Counted from the first letter of the stretch, positions 2,033 to 11,885 are shown. The stretch is DNA of 64,000 bases from Bacteroidetes bacterium RIFCSPLOWO2_12_FULL_35_15 (GCA_001769385.1 MEPB01000037.1:12241-76240), one strand, 5' to 3'. Translations and numbers: made by a program. Notes: a model not told the origin generated them from the letters alone.

Positions 2033-3061
2033 ATGCAGAAGATAGATTTACATATCAGCAATTTATTATATGATCACGATTGTGTGATTGTTCCTGAACT
2101 AGGAGGTTTTGTTGCTAATTATACCTGCGCAAAAATTCATTCTTCTCAACATTCATTTATACCACCATCAAAAAATATCGTTTTTAATAAGAATCTTAAA
2201 AATAATGATGGGCTTCTGGCAAATCAAATTTCTTCCGCTGAAAGTATTAATTATTCAAGTGCATTGCAGCACATCTCGGCTTTTGTCAATGATTCAAATT
2301 TACTATTGAAAAAAGGGGGCAAAGTAAAAATTGCAGATGTTGGCACCTTGTTTTTGGATGTAGAAAAAAACGTTCAGTTCGAGGCCGATACTACCAATTT
2401 TTTAATAGATGCATTTGGTCTTTCCCAATTTCAATCTCCTGCAATTAAGCGGGATAACATTGGCAAACGAATCGAAAAAGAGTTTAAAGACAGAGGAGCA
2501 GTTCCGGCAGAAAAACGAAAGATAAATATCAAACGATATGTTGCTTTAGCATTAGTGGCTCCTTTGATCTTTGGTATTATATGGATCCCTTTAAAAACAG
2601 ATTTGCTGAAAAATATTAATTATTCAAATTTAAATCCTTTTGCTTCAAAAGAAATTGCAAAACCGGAAATTAAGATTGAAGCAAAAAAATCAAATGCGAA
2701 AACTATCCTTATAAATAGTAGTGATACTTCTGCAATTAAACCAATAATCACACAATCACTTCCGGTTACTGCTAATTTAGTGGAGCCCGTGATAGCGGAC
2801 ACTACATCCGTTGCAAAACAAATAAGCAACAATGTGGATCTGAAATTTCATTTGGTGACAGGTTGTTTCCAAATTCAGGAGAACGCTGAAAAATTTGTTA
2901 TCGATTTACAAAGTCAACACATTTCTGCTTCCATTATCGGTCAAAATGATAGAGGGTTGTATGTTGTAAGTTGCGGTGACTATGCTTCTCGTAAAGAAGC
3001 AAATAGTGAATTAATAAATTTACGTAAACTTCAGCCTTACGCCTGGTTATTTAAAAAATAG
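2033..3061 (+). CDS. SPOR domain-containing protein with HU-like N-terminal domain
   Basis: C-terminal ~75 aa (FHLVTGCFQIQENAEKF...GLYVVSCGDYASRKEANSELINLRK) fits the SPOR peptidoglycan-binding fold. Internal TM segment (VALALVAPLIFGIIWIPL). Confidence 0.7.
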   Translation: MQKIDLHISNLLYDHDCVIVPELGGFVANYTCAKIHSSQHSFIPPSKNIVFNKNLKNNDGLLANQISSAESINYSSALQHISAFVNDSNLLLKKGGKVKIADVGTLFLDVEKNVQFEADTTNFLIDAFGLSQFQSPAIKRDNIGKRIEKEFKDRGAVPAEKRKINIKRYVALALVAPLIFGIIWIPLKTDLLKNINYSNLNPFASKEIAKPEIKIEAKKSNAKTILINSSDTSAIKPIITQSLPVTANLVEPVIADTTSVAKQISNNVDLKFHLVTGCFQIQENAEKFVIDLQSQHISASIIGQNDRGLYVVSCGDYASRKEANSELINLRKLQPYAWLFKK

Positions 3062-3128
3062 TCAGAAATTAGCTTGCTTTACCTCCAATGTTCCTTTGAT
3101 ATTTTATTTCTTAAAAATATAAAATAAA

Positions 3129-3974
3129 ATGATGCGAACGCTTTTCATACTTATTCTTGCTTCTTCTATCGCATCCTGCAAAGATCCTTTACCTGTATAT
3201 TTTGATAAACCAATTGGTGAAAAAATAGCCGTTTTCCCGGAAGACATGCGAGGGTATTATTATAGTTTGGATGACATTATCAATGAAGGGAAAAAAAAAG
3301 CAATGGGAAATTATTTTTTAAAAGAGGATCAAATTTCCATAAAGGATACCCTTAGTTTAGCAAATGCAACCGAGCCCAATAATGATATTTCAGATTCTAC
3401 AAAAAATGAAACAGGGAGTGCTTCTGTTTCAGTAGATTCGGCTCTTTCCATGACTCCCAAAAAAATAAATGATTTTTATAAAATTGCCCGTTTAAATAAA
3501 CTTTCATTTAATTATGTGGATACAATTATTAATAATATTGACAAAAAAGAAAAAATTGTTTTTGGTTTTTTAAAAATTGCTGCCGACAAAATTTCATTGC
3601 TCTATATTGATTCACTGGGTCACAATAATGAATCGACCTTATTAAAATTAGATGAACAATTACAATTAACCAGCTATTTAGGGGCAAATTACCTGAATTT
3701 TAAAACACCTTTTGGATGGGAAATTATGCAGATTGATGCTTGGGATAACGGAACATATTTAAATTTTGTACAATTTTATTTTACTGATTATGATGATCAA
3801 ACAGGAGATGAAAAGTGTTTTCTAAGTTCTACCCAAAATATTTACCCGAAGTTAAAGCCAATTTATAATTCAGAAAAATTGATAATAGGGGTGAAGGGAA
3901 ATACCAAACCGAACTTGTTAATAGAGAAGTTTAAAAAATCGGAATTTAGTCTTGTTCTTTTGAAAGTGGAGTAG
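3129..3974 (+). CDS. Hypothetical lipoprotein
   Basis: Signal peptide plus Cys (ILASSIASCKD). No recognised domains. Confidence 0.55.
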   Translation: MMRTLFILILASSIASCKDPLPVYFDKPIGEKIAVFPEDMRGYYYSLDDIINEGKKKAMGNYFLKEDQISIKDTLSLANATEPNNDISDSTKNETGSASVSVDSALSMTPKKINDFYKIARLNKLSFNYVDTIINNIDKKEKIVFGFLKIAADKISLLYIDSLGHNNESTLLKLDEQLQLTSYLGANYLNFKTPFGWEIMQIDAWDNGTYLNFVQFYFTDYDDQTGDEKCFLSSTQNIYPKLKPIYNSEKLIIGVKGNTKPNLLIEKFKKSEFSLVLLKVE

Positions 3975-4560
3975 GGTTGTCCTTCTTTGTTTCTACCACT
4001 TTTTTTTCAGTGTCATATTTCTCTCTGCTTTTCTTGTAAATTTTTATTGCCATCACCAACGTAAGCGAAAAAATTATCAATCCGAGAATACCCCAAACAA
4101 AGCCGCTGTTGTTCCTGTCTTGTAAAACAATTACAAAAACGATAGCCACTAAAAAAACGGTTGCTACTTCATTCCATAATCGTAATTTGAATGACGAATG
4201 TTTTACATAATCCCTTTGCAATTGTTTGAACATTACATGACATTCTACATGGTACAAAATGAGGCCACCAACAAAACACAGTTTAAGAATAAAAAAAGCT
4301 TTAAATAAATAAAGCTCAATCGGCATTACAAAAATTATCCACCATCCAAAAATCAATGTTAAAATCATGGAAGGCCATGTTATTCCATACCACAGTCGTT
4401 TTTCCATTAATTTATATTGTTTTTGCAAAATGCTTTTTTCCGGTTCTTCCTTCTCTTCTGCTTCGGTGTGATAAATGAACAAACGAACGATATAAAATAA
4501 ACCCGCAAACCAGGTTACAACAAATATGATATGTAATGCCTTTAGATAAAAGAAGCTCAT
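3946..4560 (-). CDS. hemJ: Protoporphyrinogen IX oxidase HemJ (CopD/UPF0093 family membrane protein)
   Basis: N-terminus MSFFYLKALHIIFVVTWFAGLFYIVRLFIYH matches the conserved HemJ start. Multiple TM segments. Confidence 0.75.
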   Translation of the reverse strand: MSFFYLKALHIIFVVTWFAGLFYIVRLFIYHTEAEEKEEPEKSILQKQYKLMEKRLWYGITWPSMILTLIFGWWIIFVMPIELYLFKAFFILKLCFVGGLILYHVECHVMFKQLQRDYVKHSSFKLRLWNEVATVFLVAIVFVIVLQDRNNSGFVWGILGLIIFSLTLVMAIKIYKKSREKYDTEKKVVETKKDNPTPLSKEQD

Positions 4561-4716
4561 CGTTAAATTGAAAAAATGTTTGCGTAAAGGTACAAGGAAA
4601 TTACAGATTATAAATGATAAAATGCATGTTTCGAAATGTGAATTTAAGATGGTGAATAGAAATATACCTGAATCATCAAACGAAATAATTCTGATTATCT
4701 TTGCAAAAAAAATATC

Positions 4717-5238
4717 ATGAAACCGAAAACAGCAAAAGAATCATTAACAATACAAACTCAAATCGTTATGCCTAATGATACCAACACTTTGGGTAATTTA
4801 TTTGGTGGAAGGTTATTGCAGTGGATGGATATTGTTGCATCCATTACTGCTCATCGTCATTGCAAGCGGGTGGTGGTTACAGCATCAGTAAATAGTGTTG
4901 CTTTTAATAATCCGATTAATCATTCAAGTATAGTAACATTGGAATCAAAAGTATCAAGAGCATTTACTTCATCCATGGAAATTTTTATTGATGTTTGGGT
5001 AGAAGATCATGTGACCGGAAAAAAAATGAAATGTAATGAAGCTATTTATACATTTGTTGCTGTTGATCAAAATGGTTCGCCATTGCCTGTTCCTGCACTT
5101 GTTCCCGAAACAGATGAAGAGAAACAGCGTTTCAGTAGCGCTTTGCGCAGACGACAATTGAGTTTAATTTTAGCAGGTAAAATGAAACCGGAGGATGCAA
5201 CTGAATTAAAAGCGCTGTTTGCTCCCGATGTGAAATAA
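4717..5238 (+). CDS. Acyl-CoA thioester hydrolase, hotdog fold (YciA-like)
   Basis: VMPNDTNTLGNLFGGRLLQWMDIVASI... resembles the YciA/BFIT thioesterase N-terminal region. Confidence 0.8.
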   Translation: MKPKTAKESLTIQTQIVMPNDTNTLGNLFGGRLLQWMDIVASITAHRHCKRVVVTASVNSVAFNNPINHSSIVTLESKVSRAFTSSMEIFIDVWVEDHVTGKKMKCNEAIYTFVAVDQNGSPLPVPALVPETDEEKQRFSSALRRRQLSLILAGKMKPEDATELKALFAPDVK

Positions 5239-5286
5239 TTAATCGGATTTTTTTCTGATGCGTTTGAATCTTTATGCAAAATGAAA

Positions 5287-6624
5287 TCAATGAAATTCAT
5301 AGTTGTAATTGATTACATCCGGCAGGGCATCCAACACATCATAAACTTCTTCTTTCATTTTATTCCCTTTAGTATCATACAGGTAGGTTTTTTTTGAGTT
5401 ACTGGAGTTTTCGTTAAAAAACCAGGCTTCTTCAGTAATTTTGTTGGAACTGTTGTAGGAATAGGTTTTCCTATACCCTTGGCTTTCATTTAATTTTACG
5501 CAGCTTTCCGTTGCTAAATTGCCATTTTCGTTATAGCTATAGGTTTTGGTCTCTTCAATTGCATTATCAGCATTGTGTCGTATTTCAAATTCAAGGTTTC
5601 CAAACTCATTGTACACATACTCAATATATCCGGCACTGGAAGGTGTTGATTGTTGTTCCTTAATTTCCAAAAGGTTGCCTTGTTCGTCATAAATACTTTG
5701 ATTGATGGAGGATATCGTTCCATGATCTTTGTACTCTTTACTTTCGATAGTGTTTCCATTGTGATCAAACCTATAGGTTGATTTTTGTATAATACTTCCA
5801 TCTACATTGTAGGATGTTTTTTCAATTTGCTCTCCTTTTGCACTGTATTTGTAGGTAGTCCTGTTGAATATACTTCCATCCTCATTCATAATATCTGCTT
5901 CCACCGAATTGTTGCTATTACTATTAATTTGTCCGTTGAACTCGCTACCAGAGGTAAATGATTTCTCTTCTATCCTGTTGTTTTTCTCATCATATTTAAA
6001 TGACTTTTCAGAATGTATGATGTAAAAGCGGAGCAAGTCTATTTCATTCAAAATGCCATTTTTGTCGTATTTATAATCTTTGCGGGACAATACGGTGCTA
6101 TCAGCATTGGTTTTTATTTCAAGCAATAATTTGTTTTCTTTTGTGTAAGCAAAAATGAATCTGCTTTTAATTTCTTCATCCGCATTGTATTTTATTTCTT
6201 CTGTTTTATTTCCTTTTAGATCATAATTCCTTCTGGTCCTGTTGTTGATTATCAAATCAGTTAATTCTATTGGTGTTTTTTTTCTGTCGTTTTTATCAAA
6301 ATAGCAGGAGCGAGGTTTTATTCTGGAGGAGAGTTTGTAATTTACTTCTTCGGTCATGTTGCCTAAATCGTCATAATTGTATAGGATTCGTTCTACAAAG
6401 GTTCCATCAGCATCGTAATTTTCGGTGATGGTTTTGTTGCCCTTTTTATTGTATTCCATATAGAAAACCATGGTTCCTTTCGTAGAATTAGGAGATTCCG
6501 ATTTCCATGCGATTACCGATTTAACGTCATTTTTGTTAATATTTTCCTCTGACAAAGCGGAACTGGCGAATATCGAATTGAAAAGTACGATGAATAACAG
6601 GATCAATGAAAAATGAATACGCAT
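5287..6624 (-). CDS. Secreted YD-repeat-like protein
   Basis: Signal peptide. Many repeats of the form (K)TYxYDxxGNxxEE (for example KTYSYNENGNLATE, KTYLYDTKGNKMKEE), resembling RHS/YD repeats. Confidence 0.6.
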   Translation of the reverse strand: MRIHFSLILLFIVLFNSIFASSALSEENINKNDVKSVIAWKSESPNSTKGTMVFYMEYNKKGNKTITENYDADGTFVERILYNYDDLGNMTEEVNYKLSSRIKPRSCYFDKNDRKKTPIELTDLIINNRTRRNYDLKGNKTEEIKYNADEEIKSRFIFAYTKENKLLLEIKTNADSTVLSRKDYKYDKNGILNEIDLLRFYIIHSEKSFKYDEKNNRIEEKSFTSGSEFNGQINSNSNNSVEADIMNEDGSIFNRTTYKYSAKGEQIEKTSYNVDGSIIQKSTYRFDHNGNTIESKEYKDHGTISSINQSIYDEQGNLLEIKEQQSTPSSAGYIEYVYNEFGNLEFEIRHNADNAIEETKTYSYNENGNLATESCVKLNESQGYRKTYSYNSSNKITEEAWFFNENSSNSKKTYLYDTKGNKMKEEVYDVLDALPDVINYNYEFH

Positions 6625-6761
6625 AATTTGGAGTAATTTTTGAGCCTACGAAAATACAAAAAAAAATGACATTTTTAATTATGACCGAAAACATTGAAAA
6701 TGTTTAAGTTTTTGGAAATTAGTTTGTTGGAAACTTAAATTATGAAACCCTATATCTTTCA

Positions 6762-6856
6762 TCTCTTCCATACATTTAAAATGTCCTTTCGGGCATTTAT
6801 CATAACCAATTATAGAGCAGGGACGACAGGAAAGATTTTTTACTTCTACCATTTTT
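6762..6856 (-). pseudogene. Orphan 3'-end fragment of a GT9 heptosyltransferase gene (near-identical copy of 9904-9993)
   Basis: ~90 bp identical except one base to the 3' end of the GT9 gene at 9878-10870. Reverse frame reads KMVEVKNLSCRPCSIIGYDKCPKGHFKCMEEM..., against ...KMVEVKNLSCRPCSKIGYDKCPKGHFKCMVDIDENLF in the intact gene. Confidence 0.75.
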
Positions 6857-6937
6857 GATTTTGAAACAGAGATGAAAGGTTTAATAGATATTGAAATTTG
6901 TATTCAAAATTTAACTCCTCAATTAAAACCCCAAAAT

Positions 6938-7438
6938 CTACTCGTAATTCAACGGAGCAACCTTTGAATTTTTAATCGTTGAAAGGATTACCATTGTCGT
7001 CATATTAGAGATCTCTTTAATATTTCTAATTGTGCCCATTGCCAAACGCTCGTAAGCTGCAATGTCCTCGACCATTATTTTTAAAACATAATCAGAAGAT
7101 CCTGTAACATGGTGACACTCGATGATTTCCGGAATAGAATTGATTTCTTTTATAAAATTCGGAACGGCATTACCCTGAGTCTGAGTAAGGGAAACCAGCA
7201 TAAAAGTCTGGATGCCCATCCCTAATGCAACCACATCCACTTCCGCATGATAGCTTTTTATGATTTTGGCTTTTTCGAGCTTTTTAACTCTTTCAAAGGT
7301 TGGGGTTGCAGAAAGGCCCACTTTAGTAGCAAGATCCAGGTTGCTCAGGCAACCATCCTTCTGAAGATGCTTTAAAATTTTAAGATCAATTTTGTCGAGC
7401 TCCTTAATTTTTCCCATTTCGTGTAGTTTTTTTTGCAA
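6938..7438 (-). CDS. Lrp/AsnC family transcriptional regulator
   Basis: N-terminal HTH (LDKIDLKILKHLQKDGCLSNLDLATKVGLSATPTFERVKKLE) plus C-terminal RAM domain. 166 aa. Confidence 0.85.
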   Translation of the reverse strand: MQKKLHEMGKIKELDKIDLKILKHLQKDGCLSNLDLATKVGLSATPTFERVKKLEKAKIIKSYHAEVDVVALGMGIQTFMLVSLTQTQGNAVPNFIKEINSIPEIIECHHVTGSSDYVLKIMVEDIAAYERLAMGTIRNIKEISNMTTMVILSTIKNSKVAPLNYE

Positions 7439-7728
7439 AGTAACATTAAAAAAGACAGATTAAGAATTTTTTTTAGTCCTGAGAATGAAAATATTAATTC
7501 CATGAGTTTGGTGGTAAATGTTTGTTTTTCAGGTATTATCAGTTATTTATTCTTGCTTTTGATAGCTTGTTAGTATTTTATTCTTCATAACTTTCCCTTA
7601 AATTATTTTGATTTGTAAAAAACAGAATATACATTCGCCACCGTTAAAATATCTAGTTATTTATTTATTAGCAGAATTTAATTTCTAGGTTTTGTAAAAC
7701 AGCAGAATAATAACCTTAAAAAATAAAA

Positions 7729-9825
7729 ATGAAAAAGAAAATACTTTGTTTATTGTTAGGAGTTTCTTTAGTTGGAACTTTGGCAAACGCACAAATCAGA
7801 CGTTGCGGGTCCATGGAAAATCTTGAAAGGTTAAAACTGGAAGATCCTTCTTTGGAAACCCGTATGCGACAAATTGAGAATGCAACACAGGAATTTATCA
7901 ATACTCCTGGGCGTGGCATGAATGCGATCATAAACATCCCGGTAGTGGTTCATGTACTTTATAATACAACATCCCAAAATATTAGTGATGCACAAATTCA
8001 ATCTCAAATTACTGTTTTAAACGAGGATTTCAGAAAATTAAATGCAGATAAAATAAATACTCCTTCTGCTTTTGCAACCACAGCCGCTGATGCTGAAATT
8101 AATTTCTGCCTTGCAGGAAAAGATCCAAACGGTGCTGCCACTACGGGTATTATTAGAAAGTACACTGCCGTAACTTCTTTCAGTGATAATGATGGGGTTA
8201 AATATAATTCCTCAGGAGGGGATAATGCATGGCCCTCAGGAAGTTATCTTAACCTTTGGGTTTGTAATCTGGGAGGCGGTTTACTTGGATATGCCCAGTT
8301 TCCGGGAGGTCCCGTTGCTACTGATGGCGTAGTGATTCTTTATAAGTCATTTGGCAGAGGATATTCAACTGTTGCACCTTATAATAAAGGACGTACTTTA
8401 ACACATGAAGTTGGTCATTGGCTAAACCTGAGACATATCTGGGGAGATGCTTCCTGTGGAAATGATCTTGTAACTGATACACCTACGCAGCAAACGTCCA
8501 ACTATGGCTGTCCTACATATCCACACAGAACCTGCTCAAATACAACCAGTGGAGATGAATTCATGAATTATATGGATTATACTGATGATGGTTGCATGAA
8601 CATGTTTTCTTTGGGACAAAAATCAAGGATGCAAGCATTATTTTCCGGAACCCGGGCAAGTTTACTTTCATCAACTGCTTGTGGCTCACCTGCAACAACA
8701 GCATGTAATGTTCCTGCAAGTTTAAATGCATCTGGTATTACAGCATCTGCCGCAACACTTAGCTGGGGCTCGACAGGCGCAACAAGCTATAATGTTAAAA
8801 TTAAAGCTACCTCAGCAACCACTTGGACAACCGCAACAGCTACCACAAATTCAAAAGGTTTTACGGGTCTTATGGCCTCCACTACTTATGAATTTCAAGT
8901 GCAAAGTGTTTGTTCAGGCAGCACAAGCGCTTATTCAGCTTCTGCAAATTTTACAACCACTTCCGGAACGACTACATCATCCACTTTGCTGGCTATAGGT
9001 AATGGAACCAACGTAATGAAAGCCCCATATGGCACTTATTATATGGATGAGAAAACACAATTTATTGTTACAAAAACAGAATTGTTAGCTGCCGGGTACA
9101 CTTCTGCGAATAGCTATATCAAGGCTCTTGCATTTAATGTTTATAATGCAAGCGGACAGGCAATGTACGGGTTCTCCATAAAAATGCGTCATACTACAGC
9201 AGCTTCTTTTTCATCCACTTCTTATTTAAGCAATACCTCAATGACAACGGTATATGCAGCAACTAAAACAGTAACTACAGGATGGAATACCCATACTTTT
9301 ACAACACCTTTCGCATATAATGGAGTGGATAATTTGTTGATTGAAATATGCTGGGATAATAATTCGTACACCACTGATTCAAAAGTATATTGTTCTACTT
9401 TGTCAACATACAACACCATTATGAAACAACAGGATGTTGCTTCAGGAGGTATATGTGCTGCAACTACGGGGACCCAAACTACTTCAAGACCGAATATCCG
9501 TTTAACAATGGGTTCTTCCACCATAGCAAAACGACTTGAAGCCGAAGAAGAAACAATTGAAACGTTTACGCTTTATCCAAATCCTGCATCATATTCTATC
9601 ACGTTAAAGTATGCAACAGAAGCTGAACATTCTGTTATTTCGGTTTATGTTTATAACATGATGGGAGCATTAATTGATCATATTGAACAAGGCGATTTAG
9701 AAAGCGGGGATCATGAATATACGATGGATCTTTCATCATATTCCAATATGCCTAATGGGATTTATTTACTTACGCTTAATATTAACGGTAAGTTAATGAC
9801 AAAGAGATTTGTTTTAACCCGATAA
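7729..9825 (+). CDS. Secreted zinc metalloprotease, M43 (pappalysin/ulilysin-like), with FN3-like domain and T9SS C-terminal sorting domain
   Basis: Signal peptide. HEVGHWLNLRHIWGD is an HExxHxxxxxH metzincin motif. FN3-like segment (ATLSWGSTGATSYNVKIKA...YEFQVQSV). C-terminus (TLYPNPASYSITLKY...GIYLLTLNINGKLMTKRFVL) is typical of the Por/T9SS CTD. Confidence 0.8.
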   Translation: MKKKILCLLLGVSLVGTLANAQIRRCGSMENLERLKLEDPSLETRMRQIENATQEFINTPGRGMNAIINIPVVVHVLYNTTSQNISDAQIQSQITVLNEDFRKLNADKINTPSAFATTAADAEINFCLAGKDPNGAATTGIIRKYTAVTSFSDNDGVKYNSSGGDNAWPSGSYLNLWVCNLGGGLLGYAQFPGGPVATDGVVILYKSFGRGYSTVAPYNKGRTLTHEVGHWLNLRHIWGDASCGNDLVTDTPTQQTSNYGCPTYPHRTCSNTTSGDEFMNYMDYTDDGCMNMFSLGQKSRMQALFSGTRASLLSSTACGSPATTACNVPASLNASGITASAATLSWGSTGATSYNVKIKATSATTWTTATATTNSKGFTGLMASTTYEFQVQSVCSGSTSAYSASANFTTTSGTTTSSTLLAIGNGTNVMKAPYGTYYMDEKTQFIVTKTELLAAGYTSANSYIKALAFNVYNASGQAMYGFSIKMRHTTAASFSSTSYLSNTSMTTVYAATKTVTTGWNTHTFTTPFAYNGVDNLLIEICWDNNSYTTDSKVYCSTLSTYNTIMKQQDVASGGICAATTGTQTTSRPNIRLTMGSSTIAKRLEAEEETIETFTLYPNPASYSITLKYATEAEHSVISVYVYNMMGALIDHIEQGDLESGDHEYTMDLSSYSNMPNGIYLLTLNINGKLMTKRFVLTR

Positions 9826-9846
9826 TCAAATTAATTTAATGAGAAA

Positions 9847-9876
9847 CCCCTGCAAAATTTTCATATTTTGCAGGGG
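9847..9876. terminator. Bidirectional rho-independent terminator between convergent genes
   Basis: Perfect 12-bp stem cccctgcaaaat / attttgcagggg with a 6-nt loop, flanked by T/A tracts on both strands. Confidence 0.7.
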
Positions 9877-9877
9877 T

Positions 9878-10870
9878 TTAAAATAAATTTTCATCAATAT
9901 CCACCATACATTTAAAATGTCCTTTCGGGCATTTATCATAACCAATTTTAGAGCAGGGACGACAGGAAAGATTTTTTACTTCTACCATTTTTGAATTCAG
10001 ATCAGCCAAGTAAGGAGTAAAACCAAACGCAGGAACTGTATTTCCCCAAACCGAAATAATTTCTTTTTTGAAGGCAGCGGCAATGTGCATTAATCCTGTA
10101 TCGTGTGTAATGATTTTTTTTGCATGTTTAATCAAGGATGCTGATTGATTCAAATTGTATTTTCCGCAAGCATTATAAATGTTCGTTCCGATAGCTTTTT
10201 CAATTTCATATGCTTTGGCAATATCTTCTTTCCCTCCTAATAAAATAATTGGTTGGTTAATTTTTTTACAGATTGAAATTATTTTTTCAGTTGGTAATTG
10301 TTTGGTAAAATGTTTCGCTCCGATCACAAAGCCAATGTACCCTTTTTGATGCACTGATGGAAGTGATGTAATTTGTATTTCATCTTTTTCAGGAATAAAA
10401 TAATCCAAACCTTTGTTATCATTGTTTATTCCGAGCTTTTCAACTGTCTGCATGTAGCGGTCAACAATATGTAATGCGGGCATTTTGTTGATCTTGAAAT
10501 TAACCAGGATCCATTTTTTGAAATTTAATTTTTTGAAAGAAGAGGAAGGTTTTCCTAAATTAATTTTTATACGCGAGGAACGTAAGTTGTTATGAAGATC
10601 GATCACAAAGTCAAATTTCTCTTTTTTTAATTCAGAAATTACATCCTTTACATTTTTTTCAAGGATATGAATTTTTGTGAGATAAGGATTGTTTTCTAAA
10701 ATCCCTTTAAACGATTTTTTAGTGAGGTAATGAATTTCAATCTCCGGCTTTTGTTCTTTGATACATCTGATTACGGGTGTAGTCAATACAATATCGCCAA
10801 TAGAACTAAAACGTATGATGAGTATTTTTTTCAAATTTATTTGATTTTTAAATCCGCTAGTCACCTCCAT
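9878..10870 (-). CDS. Glycosyltransferase family 9 (LPS heptosyltransferase-like)
   Basis: KILIIRFSSIGDIVLTTPVIRCIKEQ N-terminal motif typical of GT9. C-terminal Cys cluster CRPCSKIGYDKCPKGHFKC. Confidence 0.8.
   Translation of the reverse strand: MEVTSGFKNQINLKKILIIRFSSIGDIVLTTPVIRCIKEQKPEIEIHYLTKKSFKGILENNPYLTKIHILEKNVKDVISELKKEKFDFVIDLHNNLRSSRIKINLGKPSSSFKKLNFKKWILVNFKINKMPALHIVDRYMQTVEKLGINNDNKGLDYFIPEKDEIQITSLPSVHQKGYIGFVIGAKHFTKQLPTEKIISICKKINQPIILLGGKEDIAKAYEIEKAIGTNIYNACGKYNLNQSASLIKHAKKIITHDTGLMHIAAAFKKEIISVWGNTVPAFGFTPYLADLNSKMVEVKNLSCRPCSKIGYDKCPKGHFKCMVDIDENLF
9904..9993 (-). repeat. Second copy (in the intact gene) of the 90-bp repeat shared with 6762-6856
   Basis: Direct comparison of the two segments: one mismatch (ttatagag vs ttttagag). 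Confidence 0.75.
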
Positions 10871-10892
10871 TTTGGGAGGATTAGGGAGAGGT

Positions 10893-11885
10893 TTATTTCT
10901 CCGAATAAATTACTTCCAGCAATGTTTGTCCAACGGCTTTCAATGTAGTTTTATCAATTATGCTCATGTTGTCAGAATGTTTGTGATGGTAATCACCGAA
11001 TCCTCCTGTAGCTTGATTGTATTCAATTATATCAATACAAGGAACTCCTGCTTTATTAACCCAAATATGATCATCGATACCTACAAAAGATTTTGTTTGT
11101 GATGAAAAATAATTTCCATAACCAATATCGTTTGCTGTTTTCCAAACTTTATTAACGACTGCAGAAGCGAATTCAACAGAATTGCTTTCTTTTGGAAAAA
11201 TAGCATTTGCACCACCAACCATATCTAATAATACCCCAAAATTTGCTGTATAGTTCGGTATGTGTAAATTTTTTGACCAGTATTGTGAACCTAAGCACCA
11301 GGTGTTTTCATCTCCTCCGCTTTCGCCATAATCTTCCATATCAAAAAGTATAATATCAACTCCAATGTTTGGATTTTTCAAATTTACCTGACGGGCAATT
11401 TCCATTCCTATACCAACTCCACTGGGGCCATCATTTGCACTATCAAAAGGCTTGTCAGGGTCTTTTGTATCCGAGTCGGCCCAGGGACGTGTATCCCAGT
11501 GTGAGCAGATCATTATCCGACTTTGAAGTTCAGGTTTATAGGATGCGATAATGTTTTTCAAACTGAACTGTTTTTTATCGAAAGTTTGAACGGTTCCTTT
11601 TTGAATGATCACATTCATACCGAATGATCTTAATTTTGCTGCCAGATAATCTGCGCACCTAGCATGTGCTGAAGATCCCGGAATCCGCGGACCAAAATCA
11701 ACTTGTGCTTTTACATACGAGTAGGCTGAATCAGAATTAAAATCGGGAGCAGGTATTTTTTTTACTTCAACTTCAGGCACTATAACCTTTTCTTTAGGTT
11801 CAGTGCCGCAAGAACTAATAAACAGGACTATCGAAACAGCAATAATTAATTGAATTTTATTCTTCAATCGACCAGGTTGCACCAT
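10893..11885 (-). CDS. M28-family peptidase / glutaminyl-peptide cyclotransferase-like lipoprotein
   Basis: Lipoprotein signal (FISSCG). The region ICSHWDTRPWADSD...GPSGVGIGMEIARQ is M28 zinc-ligand-like, resembling bacterial glutaminyl cyclases. Confidence 0.65.
   Translation of the reverse strand: MVQPGRLKNKIQLIIAVSIVLFISSCGTEPKEKVIVPEVEVKKIPAPDFNSDSAYSYVKAQVDFGPRIPGSSAHARCADYLAAKLRSFGMNVIIQKGTVQTFDKKQFSLKNIIASYKPELQSRIMICSHWDTRPWADSDTKDPDKPFDSANDGPSGVGIGMEIARQVNLKNPNIGVDIILFDMEDYGESGGDENTWCLGSQYWSKNLHIPNYTANFGVLLDMVGGANAIFPKESNSVEFASAVVNKVWKTANDIGYGNYFSSQTKSFVGIDDHIWVNKAGVPCIDIIEYNQATGGFGDYHHKHSDNMSIIDKTTLKAVGQTLLEVIYSEK

Follow-up and report, generated by a model that had tools for sequence, protein, structure and literature searches.

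A near-perfect gene-end repeat around an Lrp-M43 module in an uncultured groundwater Bacteroidota: evidence for an old insertion and a probable later gene conversion

The question raised by this locus is whether a near-perfect direct repeat of a gene 3' end, placed on both sides of a small insert, marks the integration of a mobile element. The locus was identified in Bacteroidetes bacterium RIFCSPLOWO2_12_FULL_35_15 and was analysed within a stretch of 64,000 nucleotides (GCA_001769385.1 MEPB01000037.1:12241-76240), referred to here as the window. The preferred reading, to which a probability of about 0.7 is assigned, is that the tail of a GT9 glycosyltransferase gene long ago received a pair of genes encoding an Lrp regulator and an M43 protease, that a dead copy of the tail was left behind, and that 91 bases of this copy were later overwritten by the live gene. 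On this reading, the history of the GT9 locus is one of ordinary genome housekeeping and involves no active mobile element.

The direct repeat of 91 nt was identified by repeat search, pairwise alignment and direct comparison. Copy A (6768-6858, minus strand) and copy B (9904-9994, minus strand) are identical at 90/91 positions and have a start-to-start spacing of 3136 bp. The first-pass annotation had described a near-perfect repeat with one differing base; its placing of one copy at 9904-9993 stands, whereas that of the other at 6762-6856 is off by about 6 nt at the left end. The sole mismatch is A at 6814 in copy A versus T at 9950 in copy B; in the gene sense, GT9 reads AAA (Lys) and the orphan copy reads ATA (Ile). 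The window contains exactly two occurrences of a 44-mer taken from the repeat, and 100 shuffles contain none. The same GT9 stretch in 60 relatives shows only 74-92% identity to the window core (86% in L040, the closest genome in the genome collection), and coding conservation therefore cannot explain an identity of 99%. Copy B is a conserved Cys-rich block (SKMVEVKNLSCRPCSKIGYDKCPKGHFKCM) within the live GT9, and copy A is the core of an orphan GT9 3' fragment.

A chimeric joining or a collapse of strain variants during assembly could also produce such a repeat. The source is a metagenome-assembled genome, and in the ENA scaffold L081 the orphan copy is interrupted by an N gap and by foreign sequence. 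However, the JGI contig L082, from a separate assembly, is 100% identical to window positions 6433-11221 (4789 bp) and contains both copies and the same mismatch. The exact GT9 protein is present on seven contigs, and the same architecture is found in L094 and L088 at 92% identity. The arrangement is genuine, and an assembly artefact, an alternative already raised in the first-pass annotation, can be given next to no weight.

The GT9 (heptosyltransferase-family) gene (9878-10870, minus strand) is an open reading frame (ORF) of 330 aa with a Pfam match to Glyco_transf_9 (8.7e-31). It is intact, its tail is consensus-like (VDIDENLF followed by the stop), and its true start may be a TTG at 10834. 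Copy B lies inside this ORF and is, as had been proposed, the real GT9 3' end. The other copy belongs to an orphan GT9 3'-end pseudogene fragment with an approximate full extent of 6740-6890 (minus strand). The tail remnant of the orphan (6740-6767) is decayed and frameshifted; it is collinear with the tail of L092, from which it differs by a 1-nt deletion and the lack of an in-frame stop. The upstream remnant, from 6859 to about 6890, is likewise decayed, of uncertain extent and statistically not secure (17/33 matches to GT9 in register; P = 0.95 in a local-alignment shuffle test on the window alone), which makes the size of the original duplication uncertain.

A 57-aa ORF (6679-6852, minus strand) lies over the orphan and keeps the CxxC...CxxxxxC motif, as first reported, with no Pfam match. 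It starts at an internal Met of the GT9 block, runs on through the frameshifted tail and is probably not a real gene. The orphan core is also bracketed by an 11-nt perfect inverted repeat with arms at 6756-6766 (CTTTCATCTCT) and 6869-6879 (AGAGATGAAAG) (empirical P = 0.0008), which has a counterpart in L094 with one covarying pair. The orphan core could be kept intact by selection instead of conversion, either for a Cys-rich peptide of 57 aa or for an RNA or DNA stem formed by the inverted repeat. In the window the ORF is unbroken, one JGI assembly lists it as a gene, and both the bracketing repeat and its covarying pair fit a stem. Selection on a peptide, however, would not keep synonymous sites at 99%, and the orthologous stretch of L094 is broken by indels, frameshifts and a premature stop. 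No stand-alone homologue with the tail of the orphan ORF was found among 167 short matches, the inverted repeat is unused in the consensus fold, and no promoter or terminator signal was detected above shuffles. A functional orphan is regarded as very improbable.

The DNA between the repeats contains the gene for an Lrp/AsnC-family regulator (6938-7438, minus strand; 159 aa from a downstream ATG in other assemblies) and, as its divergent partner, the gene for a secreted M43 (pappalysin-type) metalloprotease with an fn3 domain and a T9SS C-terminal sorting domain (7729-9825, plus strand), in agreement with the first description of the bracketed genes. An inverted repeat (hairpin, 9833-9890) is located between the convergent M43 and GT9 genes, and its right arm overlaps the last GT9 codons. 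This hairpin is conserved along with the module in L084, L088 and L094. The Lrp-M43 pair is a conserved two-gene module that is found in at least four other chromosomal contexts without flanking repeats, which does not fit the earlier interpretation of the two genes as the cargo of an element. The insert is bounded precisely by gene ends, and no element DNA is left over.

An unoccupied form of the site, with the order GT9-YD445-4HBT, has been identified in two relatives, L092 and L098, at 91-94% DNA identity. YD445 is an RHS/YD-repeat protein of 445 aa with a signal peptide (5287-6624, minus strand), whose gene lies directly downstream of intact GT9 in both relatives. The gene for a 4HBT thioesterase (4717-5238, plus strand) abuts GT9 in about 20 relatives and forms the far edge of a variable slot. 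Bases 1-3149 of L092 align to window positions 13042-9880 and bases 3024-9889 to positions 6869-3; both alignments include 126 nt of the single GT9 3' end of L092. L098 shows the same pattern at 93-94% identity. The DNA 3' of GT9 in L040 matches the DNA 3' of the window orphan, and GT9 is probably directly beside the YD-repeat gene in that genome as well, so that the neighbourhood that had been suggested for related genomes was found. The BLAST boundaries place the DNA missing at the unoccupied site of L092 and L098 at 6870-9879, a segment that comprises the Lrp-M43 module with its hairpin and a spacer of about 50 nt beside the orphan. Because the single GT9 3' end of these relatives aligns to both copies, the approximately 3.0 kb between the repeats is, on this comparison, an insertion into the GT9 3' end. 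By the same alignments, the orphan is the displaced GT9 end, still contiguous with its native downstream DNA and YD445.

Flexible genomic islets are found at conserved hot spots between core genes. The slot between GT9 and 4HBT resembles them in having at least six alternative contents among relatives, which include nothing, a DUF7619 T9SS protein, YD445, Lrp-M43 with either remnant, and an M48 peptidase. It differs from them in that one replacement left a diagnostic GT9-end remnant, from which the topology of the replacement can be reconstructed. In L094, the orphan stands directly against 4HBT without YD445 and has a native-looking tail.

The orphan is common to three lineages, those of the window, L088 and L094, and the DNA of the latter two has diverged from the window by about 8%. 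The contig of L088 runs from within the orphan core to within the GT9 core. The upstream flanks of the orphan are near-identical in the three lineages (TGAATACAA..CAATATCTAT.AAACCTTTCAT.TCTG) and unlike those of every live GT9. By this comparison, the orphans are orthologous and predate the divergence of the genomes compared. The flanks of the orphan are 45-47% identical in register to GT9 of relatives, whereas those of the live copy are 59-64% identical. Outside the repeat tract, the flanks of the two copies are 43-52% identical in register, and the tract boundaries are sharp.

A young duplication or integration would leave two copies that are near-identical from recency alone, with nothing converted, and both the identity of 90/91 and the empty site in relatives at 91-94% identity agree with such an event. 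The flanks of a young duplicate would be intact, whereas those of the orphan are heavily diverged up to the sharp boundaries. Recency as the cause of the near-identity is also contradicted by the presence of the same orphan and upstream flank in L088 and L094, and the orphan core of L094 has decayed to 77/92 matches with its own GT9, with indels. This explanation is judged highly unlikely, and the near-identity does not indicate that an element is young or active. A diverged fragment in relatives, which the first-pass annotation had named as the mark of an ancient non-mobile duplication, was found in part, namely in the orphan core of L094.

The old insertion favoured here leaves the identity of the two copies in the window to be explained. 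The core of the window GT9 matches the window orphan at 90/91 positions, GT9 of L094 at 87/91 and GT9 of L092, L093 and L098 at 84-86/91. Two core positions, 30 and 36, carry the derived states C and T, respectively, in GT9 of both the window and L094. The L094 orphan keeps T and G there, as in L092, L093 and L098, whereas the orphan of the window shows the derived states, as does the live gene. Only these two core sites are cleanly diagnostic; position 33 (T) is ambiguous, as it is also T in the L094 orphan. The best reading of the identity of 90/91 is a recent gene conversion that transferred about 91 nt of GT9 to the orphan, and we infer both the mechanism and its direction from the pattern of lineage-specific identity. 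The match of an orphan to its own GT9 was shown directly for the window only. The orphan of L088 has L092-type states (ATAATA), and its identity starts 12 nt further upstream, which points to a separate conversion with a different boundary. On these comparisons, the near-identity marks neither a recent integration nor a conserved att site.

Concerted evolution by gene conversion is well known in bacteria, the classical cases being tufA/tufB, the rRNA operons and donor cassettes of the pilE/pilS type. The GT9 locus resembles these systems in that copies within a genome are more alike (90/91) than orthologues between genomes (84-87/91), in that the tract has sharp boundaries and diverged flanks, and in that the orthologous fragment of L094 escaped homogenisation and decayed. 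It differs from them in that the converted tract, of about 91 nt, is very short, the orphan that received it is non-functional, no benefit is evident, and conversion is deduced from comparison only.

The mode of the original insertion is inferred more weakly. The ancestral order would have been CysS-M28-GT9-YD445-4HBT, and the incoming DNA would have come from a relative that had the Lrp-M43 pair just 3' of GT9. One end of this DNA would have been joined by homologous recombination within or upstream of GT9, and the other end by an illegitimate joint inside the last 130-170 nt or so of the recipient GT9. On the donor DNA, the M43 terminator hairpin would have been joined to a complete GT9 3' end; GT9 would thereby have stayed intact, and the old 3' end of the recipient would have been left between Lrp and YD445 as an orphan. 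Decay as a pseudogene fragment would have followed, and the tail of the orphan is now frameshifted. In the window lineage, a later RecA-type conversion would have copied about 91 nt of the live Cys-rich block onto the orphan, in a patch bounded on both sides by already decayed homology, and this conversion would account for the near-perfect direct repeat. One substitution (Lys to Ile) would have occurred in the orphan since.

The junction formed by the GT9 stop, the hairpin and M43 is collinear in the window, L088, L094 and L084, so the working GT9 end plausibly arrived with the insert as a replacement end. The Lrp-side junction is variable. In the window, L088 and L094, it falls within the GT9 3' end. 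L084, which has no second GT9 repeat, has it within the 43 final codons of a DUF7619 T9SS gene. In L084, the Lrp side abuts a 43-aa C-terminal remnant of this T9SS protein (67% identity, E = 4e-17), which is located 3' of GT9 in L093. A different truncated gene at this junction, although documented by two independent junctions only, favours GT9-anchored homologous plus illegitimate recombination over site-specific integration, as it is not expected of a site-specific integrase. The illegitimate joint lies within 6870-6925, where the sequence is too decayed for exact placing; a TTTGGGG match there is window-specific and probably due to chance. No recombination breakpoint was visible inside GT9 by sliding-window identity.

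Homology-facilitated illegitimate recombination, which combines one homologous anchor with one illegitimate joint, is outlined for naturally transformable bacteria and E. coli conjugation in PMC3240628. The GT9 locus is similar in that four lineages share a fixed, collinear GT9-side junction, the far junction varies and cuts a resident gene (the GT9 end in the window lineage and the T9SS protein in L084), and no recombinase was found at the occupied GT9 loci. It is unlike the described process in that the joint lies upstream of the end of GT9, and the GT9 end of the recipient was for this reason kept as a direct repeat instead of being deleted.

Integrative elements such as ICESt1 and ICESt3 are found in the 3' end of a gene (fda). 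The insert could be a decayed element of this kind, in which a tyrosine or serine recombinase element entered the GT9 3' end site-specifically, supplied a replacement end and later lost its integrase and transfer genes. The repeats would then be attL and attR, on which the integrase of a related element could still act in trans. Cis-mobilizable elements (CIMEs) have by definition lost their integration and transfer genes and keep attL and attR (PMC5704250). The GT9 locus is like such elements in its discrete insert at the 3' end of a protein-coding gene, in the direct repeats of that end, in the intact GT9 contiguous with the insert DNA and in the empty site in relatives. The L094 locus is, moreover, a mosaic, with a block 90-96% identical to the window and a left flank only 78-87% identical, and the block has therefore moved between lineages.

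However, no integrase, relaxase or remnant of either was found in the window, L088, L094 or L084. Recombinase domains were absent from the window ORFs between 3946 and 11885 and from the Pfam matches of called genes in L081-L084, L088 and L094; no recombinase was found among ten genes sampled beside GT9 in relatives, and no circular junction was seen in assembled contigs. The remark that no integrase remains is borne out at every occupied locus, where no trace of one was found either. The putative att core is not conserved in relatives, as the indels in L094 demonstrate, and conversion best explains the identity of the 91-nt repeat. L084 has the same GT9-side junction with no second repeat and another truncated gene opposite, and the insert is a chromosomal regulator-protease pair, known from four other contexts without repeats, that ends exactly at gene ends. 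A decayed element is considered improbable; of the original proposal, the insertion stands, the replacement end is plausible and the mobile element is not upheld.

Beside the history of old insertion and later conversion, it is conceivable, if rather unlikely, that the Lrp-M43 pair between the live GT9 end and the orphan core is a portable cassette without an integrase. As the cassette is bracketed by two pieces of the same highly conserved gene end, it could be carried by an ordinary double crossover into any related genome at its GT9 locus, whatever lies downstream; gene conversion, acting now and then, would maintain the short homology arm in a usable state. A transfer of this kind would be seen in the mosaic L094 locus, the orphan tail of which looks like a native "tight-type" GT9 tail that abuts 4HBT.

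The 91-nt repeat now present could loop out the Lrp-M43 module, at the cost of an altered GT9 C-terminus. The case leaves the current understanding of these processes unchanged. Its main value is a caution for genome scans, in which a near-perfect repeat of a gene 3' end around a small insert resembles fresh att sites; comparison with relatives indicates an old insertion scar, the central block of which was recently re-homogenised by gene conversion. The locus is also an example of the truncated gene ends that illegitimate joints leave, and a clean natural example, from an uncultured groundwater Bacteroidota, of a regulator-protease module entering a hypervariable slot without any recombinase.

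The near-perfect direct repeat involving the 3' end of the GT9 gene that was reported in the first-pass annotation is real. The repeat comprises 91 nt (6768-6858 and 9904-9994), 90 of which are identical, with a single mismatch at 6814 (A) and 9950 (T), and the two copies are 3136 bp apart (start to start). The window contains exactly two occurrences of a 44-mer derived from the repeat, and 100 shuffles contained none. The GT9 gene (9878-10870, minus strand; 330-aa ORF; Pfam Glyco_transf_9 match, 8.7e-31) holds copy B at its 3' end, and copy A lies in an orphan ORF of 57 aa (6679-6852, minus strand) that has no Pfam match. Two genes lie between the copies, encoding an Lrp/AsnC regulator (6938-7438, minus strand) and an M43 protease with fn3 and T9SS-CTD domains (7729-9825, plus strand). 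On the far side of the orphan is the gene for a 445-aa RHS/YD-repeat protein (YD445; 5287-6624, minus strand), followed by the 4HBT thioesterase gene. The identity of the two copies drops sharply beyond the 91 nt, to 52% in register over 33 nt upstream and 43% over 30 nt downstream. The DNA identity of the window core to the GT9 genes of 60 relatives is only 74-92%; therefore, coding conservation cannot account for the 99% identity between the copies. No second copy of the GT9 core was found in the 80 related genome loci searched. The true start of GT9 is probably further downstream than the ATG of the 330-aa ORF (10832-10870); the orthologues (319 aa) start with MKKILIIRF, and the aligned codon in the window is a TTG at 10834-10832, 36 nt past the ATG. 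The neighbouring CysS and M28 peptidase ORFs, both on the minus strand, share 29 nt (11857-11885), and this junction is equally tight in relatives.

The exact GT9 protein is present on seven public contigs. A JGI contig from another assembly (L082) is 100% identical to window positions 6433-11221 and carries both copies with the same mismatch, which rules out the assembly artefact considered in the first-pass annotation. The ENA scaffold of the same strain (L081) has a run of Ns that breaks the orphan copy, which resembles the behaviour of assemblers at true repeats. Three gaps of Ns in this scaffold (1923-1972, 4483-4600 and 6914-7014) lead into unrelated sequence that is GC-rich, and one of them is within the orphan repeat. 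They have the appearance of artefacts introduced into the public record by scaffolding or gap filling.

A GT9 scan with one genome per species gave 80 loci, with a top protein identity of 83%. GT9 is followed directly by a convergent 4HBT gene and then by UPF0093-SPOR-KdsB in about 20 of the 80, the same order as in the left flank of the window. Lrp, M43 and YD445 are absent from the vicinity of GT9 in all 80 loci, and the contents of the DNA downstream of GT9 differ widely. No integrase was present among ten adjacent genes sampled in relatives; the sampled neighbours include MoaA, MeaB, tryptophan dioxygenase, an ORF6N protein, an M48 peptidase, T9SS cargo and an AcrB-type pump. Closer relatives (L092, L098, L040 and L093) were located by exact-protein look-ups. 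L092 and L098 (DNA identity 91-94%) have the order CysS-M28-GT9-(112 nt)-YD445-4HBT; GT9 does adjoin the YD-repeat gene elsewhere, and these two loci represent the unoccupied site. Bases 1-3149 of L092 align with window 13042-9880 and bases 3024-9889 with window 6869-3, and the single GT9 3' end of L092 and L098 matches both window copies. The closest GTDB genome (L040) has the same sequence downstream of GT9 up to the contig end, and in L093 (about 90%) a DUF7619 T9SS protein occupies the slot after GT9.

The slot between GT9 and 4HBT (window 5239-9877) is hypervariable among the related loci (L001-L098). It may be empty or contain a DUF7619 T9SS protein (L093, L030 and L039), YD445 (L092 and L098) or an M48 peptidase (L026), and Lrp-M43 occurs there with a GT9 remnant (window, L094 and L088) or a T9SS-gene remnant (L084). 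Inversions with a breakpoint in this slot were found in L018 and L027. The occupants are enriched in secreted and T9SS proteins.

Homologues of the M43 protease (76-93% identity) always have a divergent Lrp gene adjacent, in neighbourhoods that differ. The pair adjoins asparaginase in L085, L090 and L091, a C1 peptidase in L089 and GT9 in L084, L088 and L094, and in L086 and L087 it is flanked by a thioredoxin gene and an SLT-domain (transglycosylase) gene. Homology among these contexts stops at the Lrp stop codon and within the M43 terminator hairpin, and no direct repeats flank the pair in L084, L085, L086, L089 or L090. Lrp-M43 is a conserved chromosomal module and not recognisable element cargo. 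A metagenome collection scanned with M43 yielded only three distant loci (68-74% identity). The G+C fraction of the M43 ORF (7800-9300) is 0.40-0.43 versus 0.30-0.35 in the neighbouring genes; this rise may reflect a Thr/Ser/Ala/Gly-rich composition rather than foreign origin, because the same clade has orthologues with 76-93% identity. The 793-aa homologue in L090 contains a tandem 273-nt duplication (10973-11518, 88% identity) giving a second fn3 domain, a domain-level expansion inside the M43 protease family.

The orphan is found in two other loci. L088 is 92% identical to the window over exactly 6840-9980, starting in the orphan core and ending in the GT9 core, and L094 has the order 4HBT-(24 nt)-orphan-Lrp-M43-GT9, without YD445. 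The upstream flank is nearly identical in the orphans of the window, L088 and L094 and unlike that of every live GT9, which indicates that the three stem from one event. The L094 orphan core matches the L094 GT9 at 77 of 92 positions, with indels, and this decay implies that the core is constrained neither by an att role nor by a peptide product. The orphan is old and common to three lineages. The insertion topology read in the first-pass annotation stands, and a decayed, CIME-like integrase element (PMC5704250) would share it, although such an origin is improbable; an orphan shared in this way and decayed in L094 lends no support to an integrative element that arrived recently or is still active.

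L094:1-8160 is a mosaic relative to the window. Its KdsB, SPOR, hyp281, UPF0093 and 4HBT genes are 78-87% identical, versus 96%, 92% and 90% for Lrp, M43 and GT9, with the switch located at the 4HBT/orphan boundary, and the block has passed between lineages by recombination. After removal of a 2-nt insertion, the L094 orphan tail reads MEINESRFI followed by a stop and abuts the 4HBT stop, as where GT9 and 4HBT adjoin.

Two simpler origins of the orphan were rejected. A core-only filler patch is ruled out by the GT9-like flank of the L088 orphan (KPFISDPKSKIIEV) and by an orphan tail that is collinear with a GT9 tail and with the native DNA downstream. A simple Campbell model predicts that the original tail survives unaltered in the orphan; the frameshift and divergence of that tail rule this out, so the insertion event must be old. 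A shuffle test gave no significant homology to GT9 beyond 30 nt upstream of the core. A protein database search with the extended orphan peptide, which apparently favoured short proteins, returned only short or partial GT9 C-termini, none bearing the orphan tail, and no full-length GT9 with that tail, a weak negative result given this bias.

The window, L088, L094 and L084 share a collinear junction of GT9 stop, hairpin and M43. L084 differs at the opposite junction, where the Lrp side meets the 43 C-terminal codons of the T9SS protein found after GT9 in L093 (67% identity, E = 4e-17). A homologous side that is fixed, another side that varies and truncates genes, and the lack of a recombinase fit homology-anchored illegitimate recombination, for which an earlier paper (PMC3240628) provides a comparison. 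In the window lineage, the illegitimate joint would lie within GT9; the gene would stay intact through the GT9 end brought by the donor, and the recipient's end would be stranded. Sliding-window identity against L092, L093, L094 and L098 gave no clear breakpoint inside GT9 for the left crossover, and no donor of the insert or microhomology at the joint was found.

The orphan core is surrounded by a perfect 11-nt inverted repeat (6756-6766, CTTTCATCTCT; 6869-6879, AGAGATGAAAG). For two 40-mers that lie 91 nt from each other in this window, the empirical P of a match of 11 nt or more is 0.0008. In the L094 counterpart (CTTTCATTTCT and ATAAATGAAAG), one pair covaries (C:G to T:A) and one is mismatched. 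Correction of a quasi-palindrome by template switching may account for the repeat. No convincing conserved RNA structure was obtained in the consensus fold of the window and L094 orphans, which does not include the inverted repeat.

At core positions 30 and 36, GT9 has the derived C and T in both the window and L094. The L094 orphan retains T and G, the states of L092, L093 and L098; the window orphan carries the derived pair. The 90/91 identity in the window is best explained by a recent conversion in which a patch of about 91 nt from GT9 replaced the corresponding orphan sequence. The patch is bounded by the two ends of the best-conserved peptide block, where orphan-GT9 homology had survived. 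The L088 orphan has the L092-type states (ATAATA), and its GT9 identity begins 12 nt further upstream, which points to an independent conversion event bounded elsewhere. The sole difference between the orphan and GT9 cores loses a Lys that is invariant in the orthologues, in keeping with a copy that has no function. Overall, this is an ordinary insertion scar, partly re-homogenised by gene conversion.
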